Shown piece after piece: positions 662 through 64,000 of a stretch of 64,000 nucleotides of DNA (positions are counted from its first letter, which is position 1; every line of letters starts with the position of its first letter). Under the pieces are notes generated by a model, which searched no databases, was not told where the DNA came from, and saw only the letters and a list, made by a program, of their open reading frames with translations. Source of the stretch: a virus; the IMG/VR virus record IMGVR_UViG_3300045988_079583, positions 50,885-114,884 of that record. The stretch is one strand, 5' to 3'. A program made the position numbers and the translations under genes.

Positions 662-985
662 TTAATCTAATAATATTTGCCCATTTTCAATCAACGGCTT
701 TTCGTGAATAAACTTCAGGAAAATTATATTCGTTTCTTTATATGGAACAAAATCTTTACCATCGTACCACTTATCGATGCCTTCTTCTACATACCTCACA
801 GTAACGTATCCGACATCTCCTAATTCCATAGAACACTGATTCCAGTTTGGGAACCTTACACACATTATATCTTTATAATCCAGATTATCGTATTCAAACC
901 TTTCAAAAACATAACTAGCATAGCCCATCCCGTCCTCATTTTTAGCAACAAATTTTACATGGTAAGTTACTTCTTTGGTTTCCAC
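662..985 (-). CDS. hypothetical protein
   Basis: 107-aa ORF in six-frame track, minus-strand operon context. Confidence 0.45.
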   Translation of the reverse strand: METKEVTYHVKFVAKNEDGMGYASYVFERFEYDNLDYKDIMCVRFPNWNQCSMELGDVGYVTVRYVEEGIDKWYDGKDFVPYKETNIIFLKFIHEKPLIENGQILLD

Positions 986-1139
986 ACATCGAATGTATTA
1001 ATATCCTCAAACATCTTGCAACCATAGGATGCAAAATCTCCTTGGAGCTTATCCATATTTTGGAGACATGGATAATTCTTACACCTAGTACAACTGCGTT
1101 CAGGATGTTTATAGTGAAAACCATCTTTGTCCTTAAACA

Positions 1140-1514
1140 TTATTTCAGTAATAGGCATAACAATATTAATACACATGAACCAGCAGCTCCGTATTTTATA
1201 ACGTTCTGCTTTCTCTTTAAAGACTTATTAAGACCTTCAATAGATCTATTTTTATCTTCGATTATGTTTCCATAATATAGTAACTGAACTCTGCGAACAG
1301 AATCCGTCCTTTCCCAACTCTTATTTATTAGTTCCAGATTAGTTATTTTGGTTTTCAATAACGGAACAGTCTCAGAAAGTTTCTGATGTTCAGCGAATAT
1401 CAGGTTCGCCGTCTTTAGCTGTTCTCCCGTTATTGTAACGGTCGATGTATTCTGAGAAGAAGCACAAATTGACGCTATCAGAACTAGACATAATAGTAGA
1501 TACTTTCTCATCAT
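1140..1514 (-). CDS. hypothetical secreted/lipoprotein-like protein
   Basis: 124-aa ORF with N-terminal hydrophobic signal-like segment MMRKYLLLCLVLIASICASS. Confidence 0.45.
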   Translation of the reverse strand: MMRKYLLLCLVLIASICASSQNTSTVTITGEQLKTANLIFAEHQKLSETVPLLKTKITNLELINKSWERTDSVRRVQLLYYGNIIEDKNRSIEGLNKSLKRKQNVIKYGAAGSCVLILLCLLLK

Positions 1515-1699
1515 ACTTCTTGTCTATATATTCAATCTTCTTCACAATGGAATCATTAACTATAAAGATACTATCTCTAATAATAGAATCTCGTACAATT
1601 TCTTGCACGTCTACTATAGGTAAGTCAAGGTGGCTCTTCCTAGAAGATAGTAAGTATATAATTAATAATCCCATTAGTATGATTGTAATATAACAGAGC

Positions 1700-2287
1700 T
1701 TAACCTTGTTCATTTAACTCAATGCCCATCGCCTTAGCCTTCTCTACAAGCTCGACGCATTTAGCAACATCTACGCTTCCGCTTTTAGCAGCATTGAATA
1801 TTTCTTTTTCAGAACCGTTCAAATTCTCTATTTCTTTCTTGACTGCTTCTTTTTTATCAAAGCGGGCTTTCATCTGGTTGTATCCCTTAATGATTCGTTC
1901 AGGGTTTTCTTTAATAAACCCTATTTCTTGTTTCAAGAACGCCTTAACCAGAGTTTTGTTAATCACACCTCTAGACTTAGTATAGATAGTAGGACACTTG
2001 GGATCATGCAAAGCCTTATTATAGGCATTAGCCTTTCCTCTCTCCTTATCAAACTCGTCGGTTGGGTGACATACACTAATGCCTACAGACACAATTCTGC
2101 AAATTTCTGCATAGTCAGGATCGTCTACGCAAATATAGCCATCTTCACTGGACCACCCAACTGAGAGTTTGTAGCCGTCTTCACTTTCCTCTGGAGATTG
2201 GCTCAGAGCGCACGCTACAATTTTATGTTCCTTACCCTTGAAATCTACAAATGAGTCAATCATGTACTCAATCACATCCTGTTTCAT
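1700..2287 (-). CDS. hypothetical protein
   Basis: 195-aa ORF, minus-strand operon context. Confidence 0.45.
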   Translation of the reverse strand: MKQDVIEYMIDSFVDFKGKEHKIVACALSQSPEESEDGYKLSVGWSSEDGYICVDDPDYAEICRIVSVGISVCHPTDEFDKERGKANAYNKALHDPKCPTIYTKSRGVINKTLVKAFLKQEIGFIKENPERIIKGYNQMKARFDKKEAVKKEIENLNGSEKEIFNAAKSGSVDVAKCVELVEKAKAMGIELNEQG

Positions 2288-2517
2288 TTTCTACAATTTT
2301 AAAACCGTTATTAATTAGATATTCTTCTGGAGCAAACTGTAATTCAAAGAACCTTCTTAGTGAATAATTCTTTTTCTTTACAGAAAGATTTTTCTTTTTT
2401 ATAGTAATCGGTTTACTAGAAGAAAAGTATTTCTCCTCCATTAGAGCCGCTCCCCAACTCCAAATTTGATAAATCGAACTACAATAGATAAACTTATCAT
2501 GTGTATATACAATTTGC

Positions 2518-2991
2518 TTATCCTTCTCGTAAGTCTTCCGTAAGGTCATTGTAAAACACTTTAATAGTTTTGAAAATAAATGAATTTTTTCTTGAATTAT
2601 AGCAATCGTTCCAGCTTCTACTCTGATAATGAGTTAAAAGTTCAGAGGCTTTTACTCCTGTATAAACATTTTTGCAGAAGCTACTATCGTCCTCACAGTC
2701 ACAAGAGTTTATTGTATACTCTCCTATACCTATGGCATAATGCCAATGACTACCTATTATTTCGCTAAATTTACCTCCAAGAAAATAATCTTCATAGATT
2801 ATAACTTTGAATTTAAATTTATCTCTACTAAGTAGCCTAGCTAAACAATATGCTATATAACAACAGCCTCCAGCATTAATGTCATACTCCTCATCCAGAA
2901 ACTTACAAAGCTTATTAAGCCTTTCCGCTAGAATCTCCTGCACTTCCGGTGATTTCGAGTTTAATCTCTTCTTTTGCCTTTTTAAACTCAT
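2518..2991 (-). CDS. hypothetical protein
   Basis: 157-aa ORF. Confidence 0.4.
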   Translation of the reverse strand: MSLKRQKKRLNSKSPEVQEILAERLNKLCKFLDEEYDINAGGCCYIAYCLARLLSRDKFKFKVIIYEDYFLGGKFSEIIGSHWHYAIGIGEYTINSCDCEDDSSFCKNVYTGVKASELLTHYQSRSWNDCYNSRKNSFIFKTIKVFYNDLTEDLREG

Positions 2992-3214
2992 CTAAGTACT
3001 GACCTAAAGTTATAATTTCATCTTTTCCGAATTTCTTTCTAGTTGCGTAGTTTATACAACGTTCTACAGCAGCCTCTAGTGAATAGCCATAGCCTTCCAC
3101 TTTAAATTCTTTTCTCGGATTTTTCCCTCCAATATCATATAGCAGCTCCAAGTCGAAACGAGGAGAAGCATCATTGATAGGGGTTAGCCTATAAAAGGAG
3201 CCTTCAATTATCAT
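2915..3214 (-). CDS. hypothetical protein
   Basis: 99-aa ORF overlapping neighbours by short stretches. Confidence 0.35.
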   Translation of the reverse strand: MIIEGSFYRLTPINDASPRFDLELLYDIGGKNPRKEFKVEGYGYSLEAAVERCINYATRKKFGKDEIITLGQYLDEFKKAKEEIKLEITGSAGDSSGKA

Positions 3215-3581
3215 TTTCTATTTCTTTAATAAGATTTTCGATGAAGTCTGCTCTGTTCTGTATAGCTTCATATAGTTCATCTAGACTTTCAGCAATATAG
3301 ATAGCACAATAAGTATATTGGTTTATACACGGGACACTAAACTTATTTACATTATCCTTGTTCCAAGAATATAAACACCCAGTGCAATCTGGGTCTCCAG
3401 CCTCATAACCGCATTCGTTGCATAAACAGCAATTTCTAAGACTCCCAAATCCAGTTATCCTAGATAACGCCTCATGCCAGTAATCATCGTCCTCATGCGC
3501 ATTGCTTTCAAGTTCCTCTCTTGTAATACTTCTATACTTTTTTACAAGACGTCTTGCAGCGTCTAAATTCTTTATTTGCAT
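3204..3581 (-). CDS. hypothetical Cys-rich protein
   Basis: 125-aa ORF with clustered Cys (CCLCNECGYEAGDPDCTGC). Confidence 0.4.
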   Translation of the reverse strand: MQIKNLDAARRLVKKYRSITREELESNAHEDDDYWHEALSRITGFGSLRNCCLCNECGYEAGDPDCTGCLYSWNKDNVNKFSVPCINQYTYCAIYIAESLDELYEAIQNRADFIENLIKEIENDN

Positions 3582-4384
3582 ACATCTATTACTGTTAAGT
3601 TATTATTACTAGGCTGATATTCATAATCACAGTATGAATTAGTTATCGTAACATGGTCAAAATTGTTACACAACTTTTTCAAGCCTTCTATATTTACAGC
3701 ATGGCAAACTATAATCTCGAATCTATAGTTAGGATACTTTTCTTTAAGAACTTTAAGTTCTCCAAGGAATGTTCCTCCAGCATCGCACAAATCATCAATG
3801 AATACAAACGTAGAATAGTAACAATTTACATTTCTACCTATAGAGAATTCCTTGATTTTTCCAGTTTCTAAGTCTCTTGTCTTATTGAACACTAAATGTC
3901 CCCATACCTTAGAGTACTCCCTGTATCTCTGATACGCTCCAGCATCAGGGAATACAACATTAGATTGTTGTGGTATATAGCTTCCATAATTCAATTCTTG
4001 ACACCAACATCTAGAACCTAGAAGATTCTTTGCTCTGTTAGAGTGAGCCTCTAAAATACAGACTGAACGATAGTTCATTCCATTTAAGATATTGCACACA
4101 ATTTTCAGAGAAAATGGACGGTTAAAATCCATTACCCTATCCATACGCATAGACATTAGATAGGTAATAAATAAGTCCCACTCAATTTCTTGTCTGTCTA
4201 GAATATCGCCAACTTGAGCTAACAGAAACAATTCTTCGGCAGAAGTAATTCTACACATAACCTTTACCGAATCTTTCCTTTCAAATTCGTCTGGAAAACT
4301 TATTTGAGGCTCTCCGTCAGGGAATGTAGTGAGGTCATACTTAATCTCACTTTCATCCCAATTAATTAAGTTTAATAATTTCAT
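3572..4384 (-). CDS. prs: ribose-phosphate pyrophosphokinase (PRPP synthetase)-like phosphoribosyltransferase
   Basis: PRPP-binding loop VFIDDLCDAGGTF near C-terminus; N-terminal region resembles Prs N domain (FPDGEPQISF... cf. FSDGEVSVQI); adjacent to nadV. Confidence 0.55.
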   Translation of the reverse strand: MKLLNLINWDESEIKYDLTTFPDGEPQISFPDEFERKDSVKVMCRITSAEELFLLAQVGDILDRQEIEWDLFITYLMSMRMDRVMDFNRPFSLKIVCNILNGMNYRSVCILEAHSNRAKNLLGSRCWCQELNYGSYIPQQSNVVFPDAGAYQRYREYSKVWGHLVFNKTRDLETGKIKEFSIGRNVNCYYSTFVFIDDLCDAGGTFLGELKVLKEKYPNYRFEIIVCHAVNIEGLKKLCNNFDHVTITNSYCDYEYQPSNNNLTVIDVCK

Positions 4385-9767: not shown

Positions 9768-10202
9768 TTAATCCCACCAAGTTCTCATACGTTCAAACTT
9801 AAGTTTGTTGTACAAGTACCAGGCTTTTTCTCTTCTCAAAGAGTCTTGGAGAATAGGTTCGCTCCAATCGAGATCAGCAGCTTTAGGACGGAATCGTTTC
9901 CAATTCTTAATGTTTATGTGCCTATCTACAAATCCTTTAGACCTCGGTCTGAAATCACAGTGATAGGCAGAATCTATCTCTAACACAATGTCCAAGAGTC
10001 CTAGTGCTAGTTTTAGATCCCTTTCAACAAATTCATTACCTTCAGCAATTCTAGATACTTTGAAGTATTCATACATTCTGATTAAGGCTTGCTTCTCTAG
10101 TGAGAGCACGAAACCATAATCAAACGGATAGAACTTCATAGCCTCTTTAATGAGCTTCTTGTTCTTACTCTTTCTTAGTTTCATATTCTTGACTTGCTTC
10201 AA
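9768..10202 (-). CDS. hypothetical protein
   Basis: 144-aa ORF. Confidence 0.4.
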   Translation of the reverse strand: MKQVKNMKLRKSKNKKLIKEAMKFYPFDYGFVLSLEKQALIRMYEYFKVSRIAEGNEFVERDLKLALGLLDIVLEIDSAYHCDFRPRSKGFVDRHINIKNWKRFRPKAADLDWSEPILQDSLRREKAWYLYNKLKFERMRTWWD

Positions 10203-10623
10203 CTGCTAATTTATCTGCGAGATTATTCATCTGAGAAAAGAAATCAGAATTGGAGGTATGTCCTTTTACCCAACAAAAGTTTATACTAGGACAGAATTTT
10301 TCTGCCTTTTCTAAAACCTTGTCATACAAATTCCATAGTTCCACATTCTTTTTCCTTTTCCATCCTTTAGTAGCACATCCTATAACGTACTGAGAATCTG
10401 AATAGATAGTAAGAGATTTAAGTTGACTGCTTACTGCATTAAGGGCATATATTACTGCTAACAACTCACATTTGTTATTAGTAGTATTAGGAATCATTTT
10501 GCTAAATTCATAGACTTTTTCTCCATCAATTACAAATACGACTCCTACCCCTCCAGTGTTTCTAGACGAACTAAAAGCTCCATCAGTGAAGACTTCTAGA
10601 ACCTTATTGGATTTCTCCATCAC
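10165..10623 (-). CDS. rnhA: ribonuclease HI
   Basis: TDGA...ELLAVIYAL...YSDSQYV...WVKGH...NNLADKLA pattern matching RNase H catalytic motifs. Confidence 0.7.
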   Translation of the reverse strand: MMEKSNKVLEVFTDGAFSSSRNTGGVGVVFVIDGEKVYEFSKMIPNTTNNKCELLAVIYALNAVSSQLKSLTIYSDSQYVIGCATKGWKRKKNVELWNLYDKVLEKAEKFCPSINFCWVKGHTSNSDFFSQMNNLADKLAVEASQEYETKKE

Positions 10624-11008
10624 GAGAATTTACTCTCATGTTAGTTCCTAGTAATATTGCAATCTTTATCAAATCATCATAATTATCACAAATTATATTT
10701 TCTAGAATATAGTTTGCGTAATCCTTAATCTTAACTCTCTTACCTATAGCTCCGTATTTGTCATTTAACCATTTAATTTGAGGATTGAAATCCTCTAACC
10801 CATCGGATAAGTGTCTAAGAGCTTTCCTAATAGGAACTGGAAACCACATTTTCTCCCCTATCCAATCTAAATGACAATATCCAAAAGCAAAAGCTCTACT
10901 CAAATCTCTTTGAATAAACTCGTCTAACTCAAAGTTTCTCTCATGTCTGCCCATTTCCTCAAAATCGTCTCTTAAGTCTAGGCAAAATACTTCGTTAAAC
11001 TCAATCAT
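10604..11008 (-). CDS. hypothetical protein
   Basis: 134-aa ORF. Confidence 0.4.
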   Translation of the reverse strand: MIEFNEVFCLDLRDDFEEMGRHERNFELDEFIQRDLSRAFAFGYCHLDWIGEKMWFPVPIRKALRHLSDGLEDFNPQIKWLNDKYGAIGKRVKIKDYANYILENIICDNYDDLIKIAILLGTNMRVNSRDGEIQ

Positions 11009-13411: not shown

Positions 13412-14047
13412 TTACTCTAGAAGTATGCCGTACTTCCATATGTAGCCATAAGCATGGGTTATTTTATGATTGCAACAATCAGTGATATGTCTTTTGCAAT
13501 TAACAGTTTTTGCTAGACCATTATCTACAAGCCATTGAGCTGCTTCTTCTCTTCCCCAGAAGTGCTATATATAATTGCCAGCCATATCAAATTGATCAAT
13601 TTTCTTAGCAGACCCACCTCTGATTTTAATGTCATGAGCTTTCAATACTTTTCTTACAGTATCATCACTACATCCCACTTTCTCCGCAACTTTTTTGCAA
13701 GTATATCCCATATTGTACAGTTCGATTATCTCTTGATAATCATATAACTATGTTCCGTCACCACCCTTAGTAGCATTATAGCCTTTGGAGCCATAAGTTT
13801 CCAACTCTTTTATCCAATATACCTCTCTTTCTGAAAGTATGTTTTCGTCCTTTACATATTCTAATTCCTCTATTATAAAGTTTTCAACTCCATATTTATT
13901 CATAGCATCATATAATGGACGTTTTTCACATCTTTCTTTTCGAGAATCCTTGCAGTGTTCCTAAAATCTTTCCTATATAGTAAAGAGGGTTTTACCAACG
14001 TATCTTTTATTGTTGATAATATTTGTAATGCAATAGATATATCCCAT
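13412..14047 (-). CDS. GIY-YIG homing endonuclease (I-TevI-like) containing 3 in-frame TAG codons
   Basis: hand translation MGYIYCITNIINNKRYVGKT...REVYWIKEL...GYNATKGG; invisible in ORF track because TAG splits it; terminates at TAA. Confidence 0.7.
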
Positions 14048-14134
14048 ATCATAAACTATTTATAACATTATTAATAATTGATTGAATTAGCTTTACCCAA
14101 AACACACCACGTGGAGGTTTCAATCTTGTGTTTC

Positions 14135-21334: not shown

Positions 21335-21967
21335 TTATTTGTATTTCCATACATAACCTCCACAGGATTTTGCTTTTCCTACACAGCAATCAATTATATG
21401 ATTACTAGCAGAGTGTTTACTCTTTGATTTTCCTACCTCAACTAGCCAATCTGCAGCTTTCAGAGAACCAGGAAATTCCTAAATTTTGTTTCCAGCTTTA
21501 TCATACTGAACAACAATTCTACATTCACGTGCCTATTTATTAGCTCTTCCATCTATTCCATGAGCTTTTAACACCAAATACACAGTTTCCACTGAACAGC
21601 CTATCTTTTCTGATACCTCTTTACATAAATATCCTAAGTTATATAATTCAATAATTTCCTTGTAGTCATACAATATCTTCCCATCACCGCCTTTAGTAGC
21701 ATTATACCCATCTTTGTAGGACTACAATTTGTTTATCCAATATATTTCCCTATCAGATAGGGAGTTATCATCCGCTTCCTCTAGGCATTCAACTATGAAG
21801 TTCTCAACCCCGTACTTATTCATAGCATCGTATAACGGCCTCTTTTCACATCTTTCTTTCTAACTATCTTGACAATGTTCTTTAAAACGCGCTTGTGGGT
21901 TTTGTGTAGTCTTTCCTACATAGCGCTTATTGTTAATCAAGTTTGTAATACAATAAATATATCCCAT
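21335..21967 (-). CDS. GIY-YIG homing endonuclease paralog containing 4 in-frame TAG codons
   Basis: hand translation MGYIYCITNLINNKRYVGKT...DREIYWINKL...GYNATKGG; paralog of 13412-14047; terminates at TAA. Confidence 0.7.
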
Positions 21968-22051
21968 AATTTTCTTTTTTTTATTAAACATTTAGTTTTA
22001 ATCCAGAGTTCACCACGTGGAGGTAGTTTAATACGAACTCCTGGACCTAAC

Positions 22052-22556
22052 GGGAGTCGAACCCGTGTCCAAACAACCCTTGTTACAAGGATAACGTGCG
22101 TCTCATTTTTATTACATCAGCTAGTGAGTTCTAGCATTTAGATAGTTTTCATAGAAGAGCTAGATTCTTTGCAAGCGGACTCATCTAGCACCTTTCCGCT
22201 TAACTACACAACAAACTATCAAACTTAGAGGACCAGGGGTCTCTTCTCTACCACTCCATTTACGTTGGAGAACGCCTATTTGTAACCTATAGATAGGTAA
22301 TGGAGAATTTCAGCTTTACTAACCTTTGGCTTTCAAGTTAAGTACAGTGGCTCTATCATCCTTCTGCTGTACACCTCTTCTGTTTCTAGGTCTTCTCCGT
22401 TAACCCGACTCGATTAATATTTCTATTAATTAGCCACAGCTCACGCTGCCATTCTTACTTCGCTATAAGTAGCAATTATTGTTTTCCTTCGTTTAGAGAG
22501 ATTGCGCTCTACACGTCCTTATAATTCGTAATCGCCTGTCAAATCCAAGTAGGCCC
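22052..22556 (-). ncRNA. candidate tmRNA-like (ssrA-like) structured RNA
   Basis: about 500 nt without ORFs; 3' end is a T-arm (ACGGG-TTCGACT-CCCGT) plus TAGGTCC strand that can pair with GGGCCTA about 500 nt upstream; 5' region TGGGCCUACUUGGAUUUGACAGGCG resembles conserved tmRNA 5' end GGGGCUGAUUCUGGAUUCGACGGG; internal short ORF ends ...VRMAA-TGA. Confidence 0.3.
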
Positions 22557-35252: not shown

Positions 35253-35813
35253 TTAGTCTAACCATTCAAATTCTTCACCCTTGAAATGTCTTGCAAAACA
35301 AGCATCGAACACTAGCTTTCCAAACTGGGTTGATACGTATTTGGCAATTTCTTCAGATTTGCACGCTAGCATCCCGACATCGGAATAGGCATAGCCGACG
35401 CCATCGTTAGAATAGAAAAAGCCGAGACCCGCATCGCCGCCATAACCCGCGCCGCCGCCCACCAACGCGAATTTCTCGCCCTGATAACGGAAGTGACCAA
35501 TGACCTCTGCATCCTTCGGAACTGATTTCATTCTAAAGAACCGAACCCAAGGATACCATACAGTTCCAGTCAGCAGATTGAACTTGTGCTTTTCGTTCAG
35601 CGCATCCAGAATTGTTTGCAACTTAGCTAGAGCCTTTACAGATTCAGTGTAATGGATTTCACTATTAAATAAGTACCCAAGATAGTCTCTAGCGTCCTCA
35701 TAGGTCTTTATTCGTCCCATAATATTCTCTGGAACAATTTCAACATTACCTGTTTTGGCATTGTAGATAGGCTTGTAGCCATCTGGACATTCAATTTCAA
35801 TAGTTCTTTTCAT
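35253..35813 (-). CDS. hypothetical protein carrying a second DGR variable repeat (candidate variable protein)
   Basis: aa 117-148 VGGGAGYGGDAGLGFFYSNDGVGYAYSDVG encoded by GC-rich segment homologous to the DGR template repeat. Confidence 0.55.
   Translation of the reverse strand: MKRTIEIECPDGYKPIYNAKTGNVEIVPENIMGRIKTYEDARDYLGYLFNSEIHYTESVKALAKLQTILDALNEKHKFNLLTGTVWYPWVRFFRMKSVPKDAEVIGHFRYQGEKFALVGGGAGYGGDAGLGFFYSNDGVGYAYSDVGMLACKSEEIAKYVSTQFGKLVFDACFARHFKGEEFEWLD
35373..35465 (-). repeat. DGR variable repeat 2 (VR2)
   Basis: minus-strand sequence aligns codon-for-codon with TR (63501-63596); all differences at TR adenine positions. Confidence 0.6.
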
Positions 35814-42494: not shown

Positions 42495-42782
42495 GTAACG
42501 GTTGTTCTTATCTTGGGAGTAGGAGACCTAAGTCTCCCAGTATGCACAATTGTTTCTCAACAACCTGCACCACTATGTACGATAAAAGAAGATGAATTAT
42601 CCTGTGCCTACAATCATTTAAGATTGTCTTCGATTGTTAGTACAATCTCACAATACTTTGCCTTATCTCACGATAAGACACCTCTATTCATAAGAGATGC
42701 TCTGCATTAGTCTCAGGGCGTACCCATTATAATCTTTAACTGCAACAGAGTCTACAAGTAGTTGTAGTCCTCAAATACCAAG

Positions 42783-42853
42783 TTCCCCATTCTGGACTCG
42801 AACCAGAATCTCCTTCTTTAGAGGAAGGCGCAATAGCATTATACTAATGGGGA
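42783..42853 (-). tRNA. amber suppressor tRNA, anticodon CUA, tRNA-Gln-like (copy 1)
   Basis: acceptor TCCCCAT/ATGGGGA (U1-A72), anticodon stem CCTTC/GAAGG, loop CTCTAAA (anticodon CUA reads UAG), 4-nt variable loop, T arm TCTGG-TTCGAGT-CCAGA. Confidence 0.65.
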
Positions 42854-43575
42854 AATCCTATCTTGACAACTAGTATAAGATAGGAGATTATTTAGTATGT
42901 TTTCCAGACATACAACGTTATCAACGTTCACTAAATTCTGAGGTAGCTAATCTCAAAACTTGCGAATAGATTCGAGATGGAAAATGACGCCTTATGAGCG
43001 TCTCTCTTACTATCTAGCCTATATCTATCTGATGGCTTACTTCAGGCAACTTCCAATATTGCATACGAATACTTATAGGTGATATACTTTGGTCTACCAG
43101 CATATCAGTGGTACTTTGTAATATTGCCATAAGTGACCATTCATATGGCTCAATCCTCTTGTAATAGTGTTCAAGTTTGCGAATATACACATTACAATCG
43201 TAGCAGTTATTTTCGGATATTGGGTTCTTCTGCGTAACCCGCTTTTTGTTACCTTTTTATAGGCAAATGTTAGAGTAAATAATCATTGTAGTATGTGTTA
43301 TAAAACTCATCCTACTGGCGATTTTTTGAGAACTGGAGAAAGTCGGAAAATCGGCTGTCTTTTGCGTGGACAATTTCTCTCAGCCCTTACCATATTTTCA
43401 CGTGCAACAATAGTCCCAATCTACATTAGAACCACATTACTTAATATAATACTAAAATAAAATAACTACGACGAATTGATTTTGAAGTTTTTGTTTTGTT
43501 TTGTTGTTTTCTCCGTTAACCAATGGTCCGATGATGGAGTTCATGTGGGTATCTTATTTTGAAACCCATAATACC

Positions 43576-45244: not shown

Positions 45245-45316
45245 TGCCCTATGGTGTAATGGTCAGCACAGATGACTCTAAATCATTTAGTCTGGGTTCG
45301 AATCCTAGTAGGGCAA
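45245..45316 (+). tRNA. amber suppressor tRNA, anticodon CUA, tRNA-Gln-like (copy 2)
   Basis: TGCCCTA-TG-GTGT-AATGGTCA-GCAC-A-GATGA-CTCTAAA-TCATT-TAGT-CTGGG-TTCGAAT-CCTAG-TAGGGCA-A; U1-A72 and D region nearly identical to tRNA-Gln(UUG) at 30391-30462. Confidence 0.75.
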
Positions 45317-45333
45317 CTCCAAAATTAATAGCT

Positions 45334-50866: not shown

Positions 50867-51433
50867 ATGATTATGAATGTATTTAACTATAACACTTTAA
50901 CTAAATAGTTAGAAATAAATGAACCAGAGATTCTTCTAGTTAAAGAGTTCAAAGCTTTACTACAAAGAGATAAATCTGTGGAAAAGGATAGAGCAATTAG
51001 AGAACTATCATACATTTATTTAGCTATTGATTGGAAGAGTCCGTATAGCTAGTACTCTGAATATGAAAGGCACGATGAAGCAATTAATGATTCTGGATTA
51101 ACAGAATCAGAATTTAATGATCCGATATTTAGGGAAGCATGTAGAAAATATAGAGCATTATAGGACTCAAATAAATCAATTAAATTATTAGAAGCTGCTA
51201 GAAGAGCTGCTGACTAGTTTATTGATTACTTCGATACTATTGTAGACTTAAATGAACGTGACACTAATGGAAAGCCAGTATTCTCTGCTGAGAAAGTAAT
51301 GAAGGAAATGGCTAGCCTTCATAAAGTTCACGAAGAATTAATTACATTAGAAGATGAGGTTAAAAAAGAACTTACTGAATAGTCTACCGTTAGAGGAGGG
51401 GCTACAGATGGTTTTGATCCTGGAGAATTTTAA
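50867..51433 (+). CDS. hypothetical protein upstream of terminase (possible small terminase subunit), TAG-recoded
   Basis: 188 aa with several in-frame TAG; position immediately 5' of terL. Confidence 0.35.
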
Positions 51434-57925: not shown

Positions 57926-59515
57926 ATGATACAGCCTATTTACACTTCGGTAAGCAATGCTGATATAAAGCCTTGTGGAAAGAAAGGACATTTAATAAAA
58001 AGTGAGCCTATACCACTTCTAAGAGATAATTACTTAGGAGAATATAGAACAGAACTAGAAAGAGCTAAGGTTAGAAAAAACTTAGGAATTGCTGATGAGT
58101 AGAGTCTTCTTTGGGGAAATATTAGTGGAACCATAGAGGCTTAGAAAGACTTGGTTTAGTATATTGAACAAAAATGGACATATACTAGCGATGTTGCAGA
58201 AAATATTAACACCGTAAAAGATGCATTAGACTATGCATTATTTTTTATTAGTTAGTATGAGGCTAATACTGAGGAAATAGAAGAGATAAAGGTTGATATA
58301 AGTAATATTAGGACTAGTATTTAGGTATTAGGAGAAGATCTGAAAAGAGAGATTGATACTAATAGGGAAGGACTAAATAACTTATCTTAGGATATAATCG
58401 AAATTAATTAGGCAATATCAGACCTCAACACTGCTATAGAAAATATAGATGTTGATAAGAACATTCTTAATTGGATTAAAAACAACCTTTAGAACTCTAA
58501 GACTGTAGAGATAAAGGAGGATAATACTATAGAAGTCATTCTTTCTAAGTAGGATAATAATGCTATTCATTTAATCGAATAGGAATTACCTCCTACAGAA
58601 GAAGGAGAGGAGCCTTCTACTATAACCCTTCCAGGAATTTATGTAAAGAATCTAGAACCTTAGTTAGAAGAAGCTTAGAAATCTATAGGAGAAGTATAGA
58701 AAGCTCAAGAAGAGACTAATGAAAAGGTTAGCACTAATAGCGAGAGTATTACAAATATCTAGACTAGTCTAGAAACTATAGCTACCTATTAGACAGAACT
58801 TCCTGATGATACAACTTCTACTGTTATAGAAGGTACTACCGTTGAAAAATTAAAAGGGAAACCATTTAATGAAATCATAGATACTTTACTATTCCCAACA
58901 GTAGTTAGAGATTTAATATATCCATAGTTGTATTATAGCTTTGCTTCCCAAATTGTGGAAGTAGGAACTGCGCTACTAACTCCAACCTTAACTTTCGTAA
59001 AAAATGATGCAGGAGAAGAAACTGACAGAGAAGAAGTCATTACTTATAACGGTTCTCCTATAGAGTCTGTTACATATGATTCTATTGGGATTTATACTCA
59101 TTCTGGTACAGTGAATTATGCTGCTGGAGAATACTTAGTAAACAATAAGGGAGAAGTTACAGATAAAAGGGTGGAAGCTGGTTCTATATCAGCAACTGCA
59201 CAAGTAACAGCTACTTATCCTTGGTATTCTGGAAATACTGATGGATTGATAAAATAGTCCCTAGTTCCATTTAATTAGGCTTCTGGCACTATTACATTCT
59301 CATTAAGTGGTAAGGCTATTATAAAATTACCAGGAAGTAATACTCAGCTAAATTCCTTCACAGTAGATGGAGGATTGGGATATTTGAATGTCGATTTAAA
59401 TGGTTGGGAAGCTTCTACTGAACAAATAAATGGATTCCCATATAAAGTATGGACTAAGAAGGATACCTACTCTTCAGCACTGCCTCACCAAATTAACTTT
59501 ATTCTATCACAGTAA
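57926..59515 (+). CDS. tail fibre-like protein, TAG-recoded (529 aa)
   Basis: long Thr/Asn/Glu-rich protein with coiled-coil segments, many in-frame TAG; ends TAA. Confidence 0.45.
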
Positions 59516-61383
59516 TGGCATTTAAATATACAGGTGATGCTACCCTAGGTGTTGGTTTAACCGTAGAAACTCCGAAGCCTCTGGATAATAGAACAGTAGT
59601 TGATAACCTAGAGGAGCTATATTCTATTCCAGAGAGATATGCTTATTAGGGCATGACCGTATCTAATATAGATAACGGAAATATTTATATGCTTATTGAT
59701 AAGTCTAAGATTAAATATAAAGAAGGATGGAAAGCATCTTATGAATCTATCTAGATAATAGCTTGTACAGAAGCTGAATATAAAGAATGGTCTGCTAATA
59801 CTACAGAAGATTTTAAACCAATAGATGAGAATAAAACATATCTTCACGCTGAAACATATTATTATATATATGAGGACAGCCTAGACGATAATTAGTTTTA
59901 CCTATCAGCAGAATGGGGTAAGAAAATAGAAGAGTAGTTAAAGTAGAAAGCTCTTAATACTACAGTTGTATAGATTAGAAATGATTTAGACTAGACTATT
60001 TAGAATCTTTCTAAGTATGCAACATTAGAAGAATTAACTGCTAATTATGCTCCTAAGGCGGACCTAGATTTGGAAGATCCAGAATCCCTTTTATCTAAAG
60101 CTCTATCTAACCACTATACTAAACAGGAAACTGATGATATATTTGTTACTAAGGAAAGTCTTAGAGGGGAAGGAATGGAAGGAGATGATTTCGTCTTTGT
60201 TACTAAAAAGCAATATGACGAAGATTAGTAGGCTATCTAGAGCGAATTAGATAAGACTTTAAAAGTAGATAGAGATGGTTCTCTGGAAAGCATTACTGTG
60301 GGACAGATAAAATCTCCAGTGATTGAAGGAGAGGATTAGCTAGTAGTAGATGTTAAATCAGACGGATTGTTTGTTGGAGAAGATCAATTTGCTATGATGT
60401 CTGATGTTCCAAATTTAGTTACATTAACTGAAGAGGAATATTTAAAACTGGTAGAAGATGGTACTCTAGAACCTGACACATACTATTATGTGTATGACGT
60501 GACAAATGACGCTAAAGTCTATATTACTAAAGAGTATCTAGATTAGAATTACCATACTACTCATTAGTATTAGTCATGGGTAGCTACCAACTACTACTCA
60601 AAATCTCAGATTGATGAGATCGTTGCTGGTTTACAGAAACTTGGGAGCTACGTCACTACAGAAGATATTAAAGCATATTACACTAGTCAATAGGTAGATG
60701 AAAAGTTTCTTACAAAAGAGAATGCTCAATCTACATACGCTACCTAGCAGTCGTTAACTGAGCTGTCTGGATAGATAGCAGAAGAGTATGTAACAAAGGA
60801 TAGTTTGAGAGGAGATTCTCCCGAGACTGGTGATGATGACTTTATATTTGTTACTTAGAATAAATATCAATAGGATTAGACTGCTGCTTCCCAAGAATTT
60901 AATACTAAGCTATTAAAATCAGAATAGATAGAAACTTCTGACATTACTATTTAGAAAATTGTAGAAAAAGAAGTACAATAGGGAACAACTGAAGAAAGTC
61001 CAGGAGATATAGTAATAGAGCAAACTATTGAAAGCTCTGTTAATCTTACTACTAAAGATAATAGGTTATTAGCATCAGGTAAACAAGTTGCTCTTATTGA
61101 AGAAGTTCCAAAATTAGTATGTTTACCCTAGACTGATTATGATAACCTAGTTGAAAATAATAAGACAGAGAACGATACTTATTACTGTACTTACGGAGAA
61201 AAAGATATATAGGATACAGGATATGTTAGAAGCGAATATCTTACTGAAAAGTACTATACTAAAGCAGAGGTAGAAGCTTTGATACAGGAAGCTGTAAGCG
61301 AATTATAGAAAAAGATAGATGCAATATAGCCTGGTTCGGGCAGTGCATCAGTAGATGAATCAAATGAACAATTAATATTTTAA
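59515..61383 (+). CDS. tail fibre-like protein, TAG-recoded (622 aa)
   Basis: TAATG overlap with previous; repetitive coiled-coil-like segments; ends TAA. Confidence 0.45.
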
Positions 61384-61388
61384 ACAAG

Positions 61389-61598
61389 ATGGGAACAATT
61401 TATATTGACGGACAGTTTAAAAGCTCTGCTAAGCCTGTAAAAGTTGTTGGTGGCAGTGTAGGAGGGTCTGGAGTAGATCCTGATACTCTCAAGAACTATG
61501 CTACTAAAGCAGAACTTCAGAAAGCTGTTGAGGACTTAACTGCTTCCATAGAAGGAATAGATCATGATGTAGTTGAAGAAACTTTAATAATATAGTAA
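61389..61598 (+). CDS. small Gly-rich protein
   Basis: track ORF 61389-61595 extended through terminal TAG to TAA. Confidence 0.35.
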
Positions 61599-61599
61599 T

Positions 61600-63420
61600 A
61601 TGGCAGCTATCAAATCTATAAAGGTAGGAGAAATTACATACGACTTAAAGGCTACTTATGATGGTTCTGGCAACAATATTGCCGAGACCTATGCTAAATC
61701 TAGTGCTATTCCGACTAAAGTATCATAGTTAAGTAATGATAAAAACTACCTAACAGAACATTAGGACATTAGTGGTTTAGCAACTAAAGAATAGATAGAC
61801 GAAAAAGTAGACAAGGAATTAGGAAAAGGTCTTTCTGAAGCTAATTATACTGAATTAGAAAAATAGAAGCTTTAGGGTGTAGAAGATGGTGCAAATAATT
61901 ATGAACACCCAACTACAGCGGGATATAAACATATTCCCTCTGGAGGAGCAGCAGGATAGATTTTAACTTACTCTAATGATGGTACTGCCCAATGGGCAGA
62001 TTCTAGCACTAAGTTAGATTAGCAATTCTAGGCACTTAATGAGGCTTGGGAAGAACTTCAGAAAGCTTAGCAAAATTTAGATAGCTAGGTAACAGCTATG
62101 ACTAGTAACGCAGATCTTTACTCCTATGGAGTAGAATGGGATATAACTGTATCTTCTCCGGTTCTCACCAGAATTGGAAACCCGTTACTGCATAAATCAC
62201 TTCCTATTCAATCTGCTTATAGAGGATGCGTAGCCAATGGAGCTAATATAAACTATTTCTTACATCCAGATAATTGGGCTTATAAGGAAGACGGTACTAC
62301 TCCCTCTGTGCTTGATGGTAGTGAAGGAACTGTTAGGGTTAACACTCCTAAGTTCTATGGTAAGTCTGGTTCCAATGGAAATAAAAGATGGGTAAGAGAA
62401 TCAACTGTTAAGATAGACGACTCTTGGGTTGAAATACCGGAATTGTTAATTGATGCATATAGAAGCACAGTTGATACTACAGTATCTGCAACTCCAAAGG
62501 CTGTATCAGTAGTTAATACTACTACAGCATTTAGAGGAGGTGGAAATAGAGCATAGTTCGACGAGTACTTGACTACTGAGCTGGAGACTAAAGATATTTT
62601 CAGAAGCGACTTAGGAAAACCAAGAACGAATATTTCCAGAGCCACAATGAGAACTTATGCTACAAACGCAGGTTCTGAATTACTATGTTACGAATATTAC
62701 AAGTGGATATTCTACTGGAATTATGTAATAGAATATGCTAACTTTAACTCTTAGGCTACATATGAGGCAGAGCTTACTGCTGATGGCTATCATTAGGGAG
62801 GTCTTGGACCCGGAGTTACGGATTGGAGTAATTCTGCCACAAGTTGGTCTGGATATAACGGAACTTATCCTCTTACTCCATGCGGTCACTGTAACGATAT
62901 TGGTAACTTCACAGGAGTTAAAGATTTAGTTATCCCAGGATGCACTGCAACAGATGGGACTAGTACAGTAGCTACTCATACCTTTAAAGTACCACGTTGG
63001 AGAGGCTTTGATAATCCATTTGGAGACATTTGGACAAACCTAGATGGAGTAGTTATTCAAAGAACTGCAGCGAATGAAATAAGTAGTGTATATACTACCA
63101 CAGATAAAGCGGAGTTTACTGACGTAATTGGCAACAAGACTATAGCCGGATACGAGGTAGCACAAGATGGATACATTAAAGAGTTTGATTTAGGAGAGAC
63201 AGCGGAGATTATACCATCTTCTTGTACTGGAGCTTCAATTACTACTTATATGTGTGACTACCACTATTGTAACGCTAGCTCTACAGCGCTTCGCACGCTG
63301 CGGGTGGGCGGCGGCGCGGGTGTTGGCGGCAGTGCGGGTCTCGGCTGTTTCGGTTCTAACTTTGGCGTCGGCCTTGCCGATTCCCATGTCGGGTTCAGAA
63401 CTCTAAATAGAGTATCTTAA
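61600..63420 (+). CDS. tail fibre / receptor-binding protein with C-terminal DGR variable region, TAG-recoded (606 aa)
   Basis: open from ATG 61600 to TAA 63418-63420 with TAG read-through; C-terminal 35 aa (VGGGAGVGGSAGLGCFGSNFGVGLADSHVGF) encoded by VR1. Confidence 0.6.
63298..63393 (+). repeat. DGR variable repeat 1 (VR1)
   Basis: 96 nt, GC-rich and nearly adenine-free, aligns with TR; about two dozen differences all at TR adenines. Confidence 0.7.
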
Positions 63421-63500
63421 GATATAAAAATATAAAAAATCAGTTTAGATAATAAACTGTAGGATATTACTTCTAAAAACCGTTGATTGGCAAAAAAGAA

Positions 63501-63596
63501 CTGCTAGTAGGCAGCAACGCGAATAATGGCAGCAATGCAGGTCTCAGCTATTTCAATTCTAACAATGACGTCAGCAATGCCAATTCCAATGTCGAG
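63501..63596 (+). repeat. DGR template repeat (TR)
   Basis: AAT/AGC/AAC-rich copy of the VR sequence located between target gene and RT gene. Confidence 0.7.
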
Positions 63597-63795
63597 TTAT
63601 TATATATTTAGAAACAATTTTAATTTTTACCTTATTTAGTTTGCTAAGTAATATCCTTGCCTCTAGGCAAAAAATAACGTAGTGTTGAATGAAGGGTGTT
63701 AGTAGGTTATCTCGAACGCTTCCGATGAAATATATAAAAAATTGAAACGTGTAGGACATTTGCACGAAAGGGTGTATGATTTATGGAACATCGAA

Positions 63796-64000
63796 ATGGC
63801 TGATGATAGAGCCAGAAAAAATAAATCTGTTCGATGTGGAATTAAGCAACATGATAAAAATAGATTAAAAGAAAATAAGGAATTATCCCACAAACTAAGG
63901 GACCTAATTTATCAGACGTCTGAATATAGTACTTTCATAATATATGAACCTAAGGAAAGATTAATCTTTAGACTTCCATACTATCCTGATAGAATAACTC
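63796..64000 (+). CDS. DGR-type reverse transcriptase, N-terminal part (continues beyond window)
   Basis: MADDRARKNKSVRCGIKQHDKNRLKENKELSHKLRDLIYQTSEYSTFIIYEPKERLIFRLPYYPDRIT... matches the conserved N-terminal segment of DGR RTs (cf. BPP-1 Brt ...FLVYEPKPRLISALEFKDRLVQHAL). Confidence 0.6.
   Translation, partial: MADDRARKNKSVRCGIKQHDKNRLKENKELSHKLRDLIYQTSEYSTFIIYEPKERLIFRLPYYPDRIT

Follow-up and report, generated by a model that had tools for sequence, protein, structure and literature searches.

We describe here what is very probably an active diversity-generating retroelement (DGR) of a Zeta-type crAss-like phage, situated close to the end of a 64,000-nucleotide (nt) stretch of viral DNA (positions 50,885 to 114,884 of the IMG/VR record IMGVR_UViG_3300045988_079583), which in its entirety is referred to below as the window. 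The central component is a non-coding, adenine-rich template repeat (TR; 63501-63599, plus strand, 31 adenines), which lies between a tail-protein gene, the C-terminus of which is encoded by a first variable repeat (VR1; 63298-63396, plus strand, specifying ...LRVGGGAGVGGSAGLGCFGSNFGVGLADSHVGF), and the gene for a reverse transcriptase (RT) of the DGR clade. A second variable repeat (VR2), served by the same TR, is found far away on the opposite strand. The original prediction, made from the letters of the window alone, had read the region as a DGR on account of an adenine-specific TR/VR pair, a DGR-type RT beside the TR, the location of the VR in a tail gene, at its 3' end, and the recoding of TAG in that gene. 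All of these components are borne out by the analysis, so that the interpretation as a DGR stands, but it was incomplete, having missed the remote VR2 and misplaced the start of the RT.

The evidence begins with the repeat itself. A repeat search of the window returns, near its end, a single long direct repeat (63298-63395 and 63501-63598; 98 nt, offset 203, 73% identical), and with the two copies held in register over these 98 nt VR1 differs from the TR at 26 positions, 25 of which are adenines in the TR (19 A>G, 4 A>T and 2 A>C). Extension of the repeat by one base, to A63599 in the TR and C63396 in VR1, brings the count to 27 mismatches, 26 of them on adenine, and for a 98-nt repeat with 30 adenines the hypergeometric probability of 26 mismatches striking adenines without exception is 7e-20. 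The adenine restriction thus survives careful alignment (26/27 on TR adenines), the test by which the original prediction had proposed to judge itself, and only its wording that every mismatch falls on a TR adenine is too strong, being true of 25 of the 26 and false for one position, 4 nt inside the 5' edge of the repeat, where the TR has T63505 and VR1 has G63302. The same G63302 is present in 9/26 related genomes, and the mismatch may reflect either a variable 5' limit of the replacement by complementary DNA (cDNA) or a recurrent non-adenine error. The individual codon pairs cited earlier for TR and VR1 were all found, and VR1 is indeed GC-rich and nearly free of adenine (67% G+C, with 5 adenines against 30 in the TR over the 98 nt). 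VR1 falls 24 nt short of the stop codon of its gene; a gap of 104 nt separates it from the TR, which is in turn followed by 142 nt before the RT start. Both VRs terminate in ATGTCGGG, where the TR has ATGTCGAG. DGR targets often have a stem-loop just past the VR. The only such candidate here is a weak one, ACTCT-AAAT-AGAGT (63400-63413, plus strand), 4 nt past VR1 with a 5-bp stem, which is located within coding sequence and of which, in close relatives, the stem is constant and the loop alone varies, with no covariation. In the distant relatives L059, L066 and L076 the equivalent position is occupied by clear GC-rich hairpins with 4-5-nt loops.

Comparison between genomes points to an element in which one-way transfer from TR to VR is continuing. 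Two related loci share ~99% identity with the window, L001 over 4.8 kb and L004 over 7 kb, and outside VR1 they differ from it at 0.7-0.8% of sites, whereas within VR1 the differences amount to 20/98 for L001 and 16/98 for L004 (binomial P 6e-24 and 2e-16). Among the VR1 sites that vary between these three genomes, 20/22 are adenines in the TR, and hypervariability is confined to the VR in genomes that are otherwise nearly identical. The TR itself is the same in all three save for one T>C in L001, and the VR1 of L001 carries the matching change. Similarly, across 25 loci whose RT proteins are 84-99% identical the TR is identical at 98/98 positions in most, with a different VR1 in each, and where the TR does contain non-adenine variants (L006, L012, L026/L029/L041 and L042) these reappear in the VR1 of the same genome. 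In most relatives among L006-L062 whose RT protein has no more than 86-88% identity, the TR is unchanged at 98/98 positions; conservation is thus stronger in the non-coding template than in the enzyme by which it is copied. A wider scan of IMG/VR, covering 80 RT loci out of 595 relatives (at least 595 loci), shows that nearly all loci for which upstream sequence is available are arranged as VR, short gap, TR, ~120-220 nt and RT; of the repeat copies it is invariably the TR that lies closest to the RT, and mismatches occur on adenines only. Several contigs of ~120-190 kb (L005, L009, L014, L017, L019 and L022) start or end about 150-550 nt upstream of the RT, at or beside the TR/VR, which is consistent with assembly breaks expected at a repeated, heterogeneous region.

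One could ask whether the cassette is instead a fossil, with a genuine TR, VR and RT but with the element dead and the VR differences old, all the more as decayed cassettes do occur in the family: locus L155 has a target, a TR and the P1 hairpin of the TR-RT spacer (see below), and has lost the RT core. For the window we hold this to be very unlikely. Its RT open reading frame (ORF) is intact with all catalytic motifs, its TR is strongly conserved, genomes ~99% identical elsewhere have 16-20 differing sites in VR1, and point variants that arose recently in the TR are found copied in the two VRs.

The RT gene is cut by the end of the window (63742-64000, plus strand). An exact-match scan of IMG/VR returned four contigs, one of which, L002, is 100% identical to the window over the 483-nt overlap and extends 12.9 kb further, and the full RT sequence was read from it; the complete ORF is of 424 aa and ends at window-equivalent position 65016. 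The protein matches Pfam RVT_1 (5e-20) and phrog_1423 (1.5e-110), and among PDB sequences its best match is 8ub7_A (E 1.2e-44), with retron and group II intron RTs at 1e-14 or weaker; NCBIfam gave below-cutoff matches only, to group II, retron and Drt models, and searches of the N-terminal fragment with Pfam and NCBIfam added nothing to these. Its motifs IGNYLSQ (of the IGxxxSQ type) and YADD align with I181, G182, Q187, D215 and D216 of 8ub7_A, and since these are the residues and numbers named for the RT of the Bordetella phage (bRT) in a cryo-electron microscopy (cryo-EM) preprint, 8ub7_A can be identified as bRT. The original prediction had taken an ORF starting at ATG 63796 as the DGR RT. 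Assignment to the DGR clade is upheld, the expected RT motifs being present in the completed ORF, but the start most likely lies at TTG 63742, because the sequence with which the RT of relatives begins, ATGAAAAGAATAGG (MKRIG...), aligns with TTGAAACGTGTAGG in the window. The ORF contains four in-frame TAG codons, all past the window end. Beyond the region that can be aligned with bRT the protein continues for ~95 aa, and this C-terminal extension is basic (net charge about +10, counted by hand), is kept in relatives down to ~32% identity and is missing from the most distant ones.

The original prediction listed a single VR, and omitted a second at 35370-35468 on the minus strand, 28 kb away. 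It was detected by an adenine-masked TR scan of both strands of the window, prompted by the peptide LVGGGAGYGGDAGLGFFYSNDGVGYAYSDVG in a minus-strand ORF, and the scan gave exactly one extra match in the window. VR2 agrees with the TR at 64/68 non-adenine positions and differs from it at 22 adenine sites, the 4 other mismatches lying at the extreme ends, so that the 92-nt core (35373-35464) has zero non-adenine mismatches. The gene that carries it, target gene 2 (35253-35813, minus strand), encodes a protein of 186 aa with no in-frame TAG and of unknown function, and is located directly downstream of tRNA-His within the minus-strand block of genes for tRNAs and nucleic-acid enzymes. VR2 encodes about residues 115-147 of this protein and is followed by 39 residues. 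The protein matches phrog_11581 (unknown function; 3e-15) and no Pfam or NCBIfam family, none of its 834 homologs is named, and structure prediction yielded an unusable model (predicted local distance difference test score, pLDDT, 43). Its sequence comprises a near-invariant scaffold with about 12 variable positions, and the proteins of target genes 1 and 2 are alike only across the 38 VR columns. In each of 38 related loci VR2 is different, exclusively at sites of TR adenines, and it mirrors the TR variants of its own genome (L091, L094 and L095), namely a C at index 7 in contig 059915 and a T at index 17/29/44/92 in contigs 065173 and 061465.

Is VR2, then, a true target, or is the similarity due to chance or common ancestry, or to a former target that is no longer rewritten? 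Its distance of 28 kb from the TR on the opposite strand, its position away from the 3' end of target gene 2 and the lack of an obvious recognition hairpin after it (no hairpin past VR2 is evident in the gene) could be taken to favour the latter possibilities. These are nevertheless extremely unlikely, given a stretch of 92 nt with no non-adenine mismatch, the differences at TR-adenine sites only in all 38 relatives, and the presence in VR2 of the recent TR variants of its own genome in contigs 059915, 065173 and 061465.

The outcome at an adenine of the TR depends strongly on its 3' neighbour. We surveyed the window TR together with the TRs of 70 related loci (L006-L084), and across the 29 TR families represented, adenines that precede G correspond to G in the VR in 378/398 cases (the remainder being 19 A and 1 T, with 0 C), while adenines in AAT or AAC contexts vary freely. 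The same pattern is found at four-fold-degenerate third positions, where adenines before G give 97 G and 4 A, and other adenines 19 G, 2 A, 12 T and 2 C; protein selection therefore cannot be its cause, and for this reason we rejected selection for glycine as a full explanation of the sites that are always G. In the cDNA synthesised by bRT the base 3' of the template adenine likewise dominates the error profile (Unlu et al. 2026, PLoS Genet, PMC12875486), and the slippage model proposed for that enzyme, in which the preceding template base is re-used, predicts A-to-G changes before G (PMC12875486). The pattern observed here fits this model, and editing of adenosine to inosine (A-to-I) in the TR RNA, which was also considered, is not needed given the published mechanism. 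The two data sets agree in that the 3' neighbour of the adenine governs the incorporated base, and differ in degree: misincorporation of G by bRT at NAG is 0.08%, with C predominant overall (PMC12875486), whereas the natural VRs compared here are near-deterministic (378/398, and 97/101 at four-fold sites). It must be borne in mind that the latter derive from another RT lineage and were measured after selection, possibly after many rounds of homing, and not in cDNA. The rule suggests that the AGC and GAG codons of these TRs are disguised glycine codons.

In this context it is possible to dispose of a simpler account, that of an ordinary duplicated segment, with no retroelement involved, whose copies have become different through mutation, through recombination or because receptor-binding residues are under diversifying selection. 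Diversifying selection is common at the tips of tail fibres, and many of the fixed A-to-G differences yield glycine codons that selection might favour. Yet the differences fall on the adenines of one copy only (P~1e-19), the invariant copy is the non-coding one, synonymous four-fold sites obey the same adenine rule, an RT of the DGR clade adjoins the TR, and the same TR resembles two unrelated genes solely across the VR. Together these observations refute the account, to which we assign practically no credence.

Between TR and RT the window contains what appears to be a structured RNA. The small hairpin noticed earlier in this spacer, TTGCC-TCTA-GGCAA, is present at 63657-63670 (plus strand) and constitutes the first helix (P1) of a structure supported by covariation; an invariant A-tract (63669-63677, AAAAAAUAA) comes after it. 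In an alignment (A1) of 24 diverse spacer sequences 97.5% of the P1 cells are paired, with compensatory combinations such as TTACC/GGTAA, TTTCC/GGAAA and TTGGC/GCCAA, and large insertions occur in the loop only. Further downstream lies an irregular hairpin, P2-P3 (63693-63724, plus strand), formed by P2 (63693-63699/63718-63724) and P3 (63705-63707/63711-63713), between which an internal loop opposes an invariant UAGUA (63700-63704) to GAA (63714-63716); P3 is variable, often with a GAAA loop. Over the whole of alignment A1 85% of cells are paired, against 36-51% when the partners are slid, 10/15 pairs have changed on both sides, and 0/500 shuffles match the observed values; RNAalifold independently predicts the same helices. 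In addition the 3' flank of the TR (63600-63609, plus strand) can form a 10-bp duplex with 63728-63737 (plus strand; inverted repeat I14), after which AAAA immediately precedes the RT start codon. This duplex, a candidate template:primer duplex, is contained in the minimum free energy fold of the window sequence, and in other families the corresponding helix covaries (TTATACAT/ATGTATAA, TATATTGCT/AGCAATATA, TTAAAATT/AATTTTAA and TGCTTGTA/TACAAGCA). An alternative pairing of the 5' strand of P1 with an upstream GGCAAAA (63483-63491), which would resemble the upstream:downstream duplex of BPP-1, is not supported, as by eye it does not covary with P1 in L061, and no Rfam family was found in the TR-RT spacer at gathering thresholds.

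The arrangement invites comparison with the RNA that follows the TR in Bordetella phage BPP-1. According to the cryo-EM preprint, that RNA includes a template:primer duplex, at the end of which is the priming adenosine, a short stem-loop with adenosines behind it, and a long stem that contains interior loops and binds the RT, as well as an Avd-binding stem-loop directly after the TR. By position and shape the elements of the spacer seem to match the first three of these, and by the same analogy the spacer RNA may serve to position template and primer; no counterpart of the Avd-binding stem-loop was seen in the spacer.

This raises the question of Avd, the accessory protein of the Bordetella system. 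The original prediction saw no avd-like ORF between target, TR and RT, and indeed no ORF fits between them, whether for Avd or for an accessory gene of the HRDC type, nor does the window encode an Avd domain: a Pfam search of 63 plausible small ORFs on the coding strands of the 64-kb window and the 13 kb downstream found no Avd (PF05635). Extension of the sequence beyond the window, which had been proposed as a means of obtaining the complete RT and any avd gene, recovered the former but found no Avd in the 13 kb downstream. Similarly, among the 70 related loci VR-TR gaps are mostly of 40-170 nt, rising to 235-240 nt in the group of L052/L053/L055 and to 420-500 nt in L081, L072, L080 and L083, where at least three of these larger gaps are accounted for by the VR being the distal copy of two; with TR-RT gaps of about 120-220 nt, most of the loci have no room for a gene beside the TR.

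What is found next to the RT in nearly all loci, even where the next large gene is unrelated, is a small ORF immediately 3' of it, encoding an acidic protein of ~115 aa (phrog_11557; window-equivalent ~64937-65314, or 1420-1797 of L002 as oriented), which overlaps the RT stop. The association holds in the reverse direction also, the RT lying just upstream in 79/80 loci found with that ORF. The sole exception is L155 (IMGVR_UViG_3300045988_113697, 947-3884), a decayed cassette that has lost the RT catalytic core by deletion but still has the target, TR and P1 along with the small ORF and the region that codes for the RT extension. In L009, L031, L047 and L054 the ORF is fused to a further domain of ~150 aa, and neither Pfam nor NCBIfam returned a match to it. 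We considered it as a substitute for Avd and set that idea aside, the protein being acidic, without an Avd profile match, fused in some relatives, and able to outlive loss of the RT core.

Two views of the enzyme have to be weighed. The element could be a conventional Avd-dependent DGR that obtains Avd, or some other accessory protein, from a gene in another part of the ~185-kb genome or from the host. The range of the Avd scan (the window and 13 kb downstream only) leaves space for such a gene, and the ORF conserved after the RT in nearly all relatives might be an accessory protein that escapes recognition. We consider this unlikely, though with a real chance of being correct, for there is no PF05635 among the 63 small ORFs, the VR-TR and TR-RT gaps are without room for a gene across most of the 70 loci, of 43 Zeta genomes Lera and ct1yV3 alone are reported to have Avd genes (PMC12386605), and the small ORF product, acidic unlike the basic Avd and fused in some relatives, persists without RT in L155. 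The converse and more far-reaching proposition is a joint one, that this RT lineage (at least 595 IMG/VR loci) is naturally independent of Avd, the extension and the spacer RNA, perhaps with the phrog_11557 protein, taking its place, and that VR2 in addition diversifies a protein that is not part of the virion. The protein containing VR2, which comes from a presumably early TAG-free block, may for example be a binder of host factors and not a receptor-binding protein. We put this combination forward tentatively, as a possibility with the odds against it.

The first target of the element is a tail (fibre) protein gene (61600-63420, plus strand), of 606 aa with 13 in-frame TAG codons and a TAA stop. 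The earlier designation as a tail-fibre target agrees with a match to phrog_5302 ('tail protein', E 8e-80) and with BFVD, in which the best match (82% identical) bears a depositor label derived from the Treponema variable protein TvpA and the next are crAss-like tail-fibre proteins. Pfam and NCBIfam gave no match to the protein, and no support for a C-type lectin fold in the targets came from profile searches against PDB sequences, which found nothing; for Zeta crAss-like phages C-lectin domains have been reported from AlphaFold3 models (PMC12386605). Among matches P0121-P0240 the database homologs of the protein are mostly fragments of 119-260 aa labelled hypothetical.

The gene is open as one ORF only when TAG is taken as a sense codon, in keeping with its earlier description as TAG-recoded. 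Glutamine is found at TAG codon 399 in 36/36 homologs and also at codon 385, and TAG 64303 of the RT corresponds to the Q of the SQ motif, aligned with Q187 of bRT, so that in both target 1 and the RT TAG is read as glutamine, a recoding of the genetic code 15 type. Two suppressor tRNAs with the anticodon CTA were found by ARAGORN and Rfam, copy A at 42782-42853 (minus strand) and copy B at 45245-45317 (plus strand), and copy B is 71% identical to the phage's own tRNA-Gln(TTG), the best match of all window tRNAs. Both are located where a TAG-free minus-strand block meets a TAG-rich plus-strand block: between 1 and 44 kb most minus-strand ORFs contain no in-frame TAG, and the plus-strand structural ORFs from 49.6 kb onwards contain 3-28 TAGs each (16 in the terminase and 28 in the portal gene). 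At this switch of coding regime copy A is adjoined by a RAGATH-14 RNA (RF03145, 166 bits; 42882-43054, minus strand).

The recoded block holding the RT and target 1 is presumably the late block. Translation of both genes requires the suppressor tRNA(CTA) in trans, and the RT would therefore be producible only when suppression is available. The VR itself is not affected by the recoding, since no TR codon, read directly, can be converted by adenine changes to TAA, TAG or TGA. Gene calling in the standard code, on the other hand, splits both the RT and target 1 into pieces. The fragmentary database homologs of target 1 fit with callers of this kind stopping at TAG, and it is likely that surveys under-count the DGRs of such phages, targets and RTs alike.

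The phage is best regarded, on TerL, portal and shared traits, as a probable member of the Zeta crAss-like group (Crassvirales; proposed Echekviridae). Its terminase large subunit (TerL) is phrog_6681 and its portal protein phrog_6547, both of which are crAss-like, and in tblastn TerL is 26% identical to crAss-like phages and 44-46% to other gut phages; the window contains 26 tRNAs plus the 2 CTA suppressors, and relatives are of 183-186 kb. A megablast search of 58000-64000 against INPHARED phages gave no match. Zeta crAss-like DGRs with amber-suppressed RT genes and no Avd were already reported in 2025 (PMC12386605), and with that group (ctoVY1/cthgQ11/3717_85572) the present system shares a genome of 182-189 kb with 24-27 tRNAs and ~34.5-35% G+C, a CTA suppressor tRNA and amber suppression, a DGR placed in the structural block with a tail-fibre target, and the absence of Avd beside an RT with GxxxSQ and in-frame amber codons. 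The RT is also unusually long in both, 414 aa being reported, a length that the window RT too would have if started from GTG 63772 (PMC12386605). The paper contains neither the spacer RNA structure nor the AG rule nor the small ORF after the RT, and a remote second target for this group is not mentioned in its text. It also asks whether Zeta DGR cassettes still operate, a question which it leaves open and to which the comparison across genomes made here, with its signs of recent activity, speaks directly.

Comparison with the prototype DGR of Bordetella phage BPP-1 (mtd-avd-TR-brt) shows a homologous RT (E 1e-44) with the same active-site motifs, the same adenine-specific transfer from TR to VR and a tail-fibre gene whose 3' end holds the VR, together with, by position and shape, a structured RNA after the TR composed of a TR-end duplex, a short stem-loop with adenosines and a long irregular stem-loop beside the RT. 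In contrast to BPP-1, the element described here lacks both avd and a stem-loop immediately behind the TR (the place of the Avd-binding one there), and has an extra basic C-terminal extension of ~95 aa on the RT, two targets and TAG-recoded genes; its TR employs AAT and AGC codons, and that of BPP-1 mostly AAC. A two-target DGR is also known from a gut phage, in which, as here, one TR serves two functionally different genes, the second of them without an assigned role. There, however, the two targets are part of the cassette, the first having C-lectin and Ig domains and a VR near its 5' end, whereas target 2 of the present phage is 28 kb off on the opposite strand in a TAG-free block, is of 186 aa with no recognisable domain, and carries VR2 two-thirds along its length.

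Some further features of the window may be recorded. The tRNA block contains a tmRNA-like gene (22039-22556, minus strand) detected by ARAGORN (tag peptide VQQKDDRATVLNLKAKG) and by Rfam (RF00023, 56 bits). An ORF at 10165-10629 (minus strand) has an RNase H domain (PF00075, 2e-25) and is probably a replication gene. Two paralogous ORFs (13412-14059 and 21335-21991, both minus strand) have GIY-YIG-like N-termini (…GYIYCITN…RYVGKT…) and, with several HNH-domain ORFs (PF01844) among the tRNA genes, are likely homing endonucleases.

How the element might work can be outlined largely on the model of the Bordetella phage. A single transcript would comprise the TR and the 143-nt spacer, and in it the spacer is predicted to fold into the P1 hairpin with its A-tract and the irregular P2-P3 hairpin. 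Pairing of the TR 3' flank with the sequence just upstream of the RT start would then place the priming adenosine, with cDNA synthesis starting at about 63599. The RT would copy the TR faithfully save at adenines, an adenine before G almost always giving rise to G, and the resulting cDNA would replace VR1 or VR2. As no Avd is found nearby, the RT may work by means of the structured RNA and of its own basic C-terminal extension (~95 aa), other factors possibly taking part.

Several observations weigh against this picture or against parts of it. VR1 does contain the non-adenine mismatch at 63302, and a clear GC-rich element for the initiation of mutagenic homing (IMH) or a strong hairpin was not seen past either VR1 or VR2. 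The variation of the VR was observed by comparison between genomes. The spacer RNA is not thermodynamically stabler than shuffled sequence (z = 0.06), so that it is by covariation alone that the structure can be argued. The priming site and independence of Avd are inferred only, the Avd scan spanning 77 kb of a ~185-kb genome.

The prior description of Avd-less DGRs with amber-suppressed RTs (PMC12386605) weakens the emphasis on novelty in the original prediction; since the traits of the window match those of the published Zeta group, what had been found was a correctly identified further member of a described kind. The remote second target, the covariation-supported spacer RNA of an Avd-less element, the linkage between phrog_11557 and the RT and the AG rule appear to be new in the searchable literature. 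The evidence from comparison of genomes that Zeta cassettes still work provides an answer to the question left open in 2025. The element also presents a case of two targets under a single TR, with one target to each coding regime; the second is a small protein that lies outside the structural module and has no known function. The RNA architecture of an Avd-less DGR, together with a basic RT domain, makes the Avd-independent function of an RT approachable by experiment, and the natural VRs lend independent support to the 3'-neighbour rule, which is of relevance both to predicting the sequence space accessible to DGRs and to engineering DGR-based mutagenesis. Ultimately, should independence of Avd and the targeting of a non-virion protein by VR2 prove true, the function of phage DGRs would be extended beyond host recognition.

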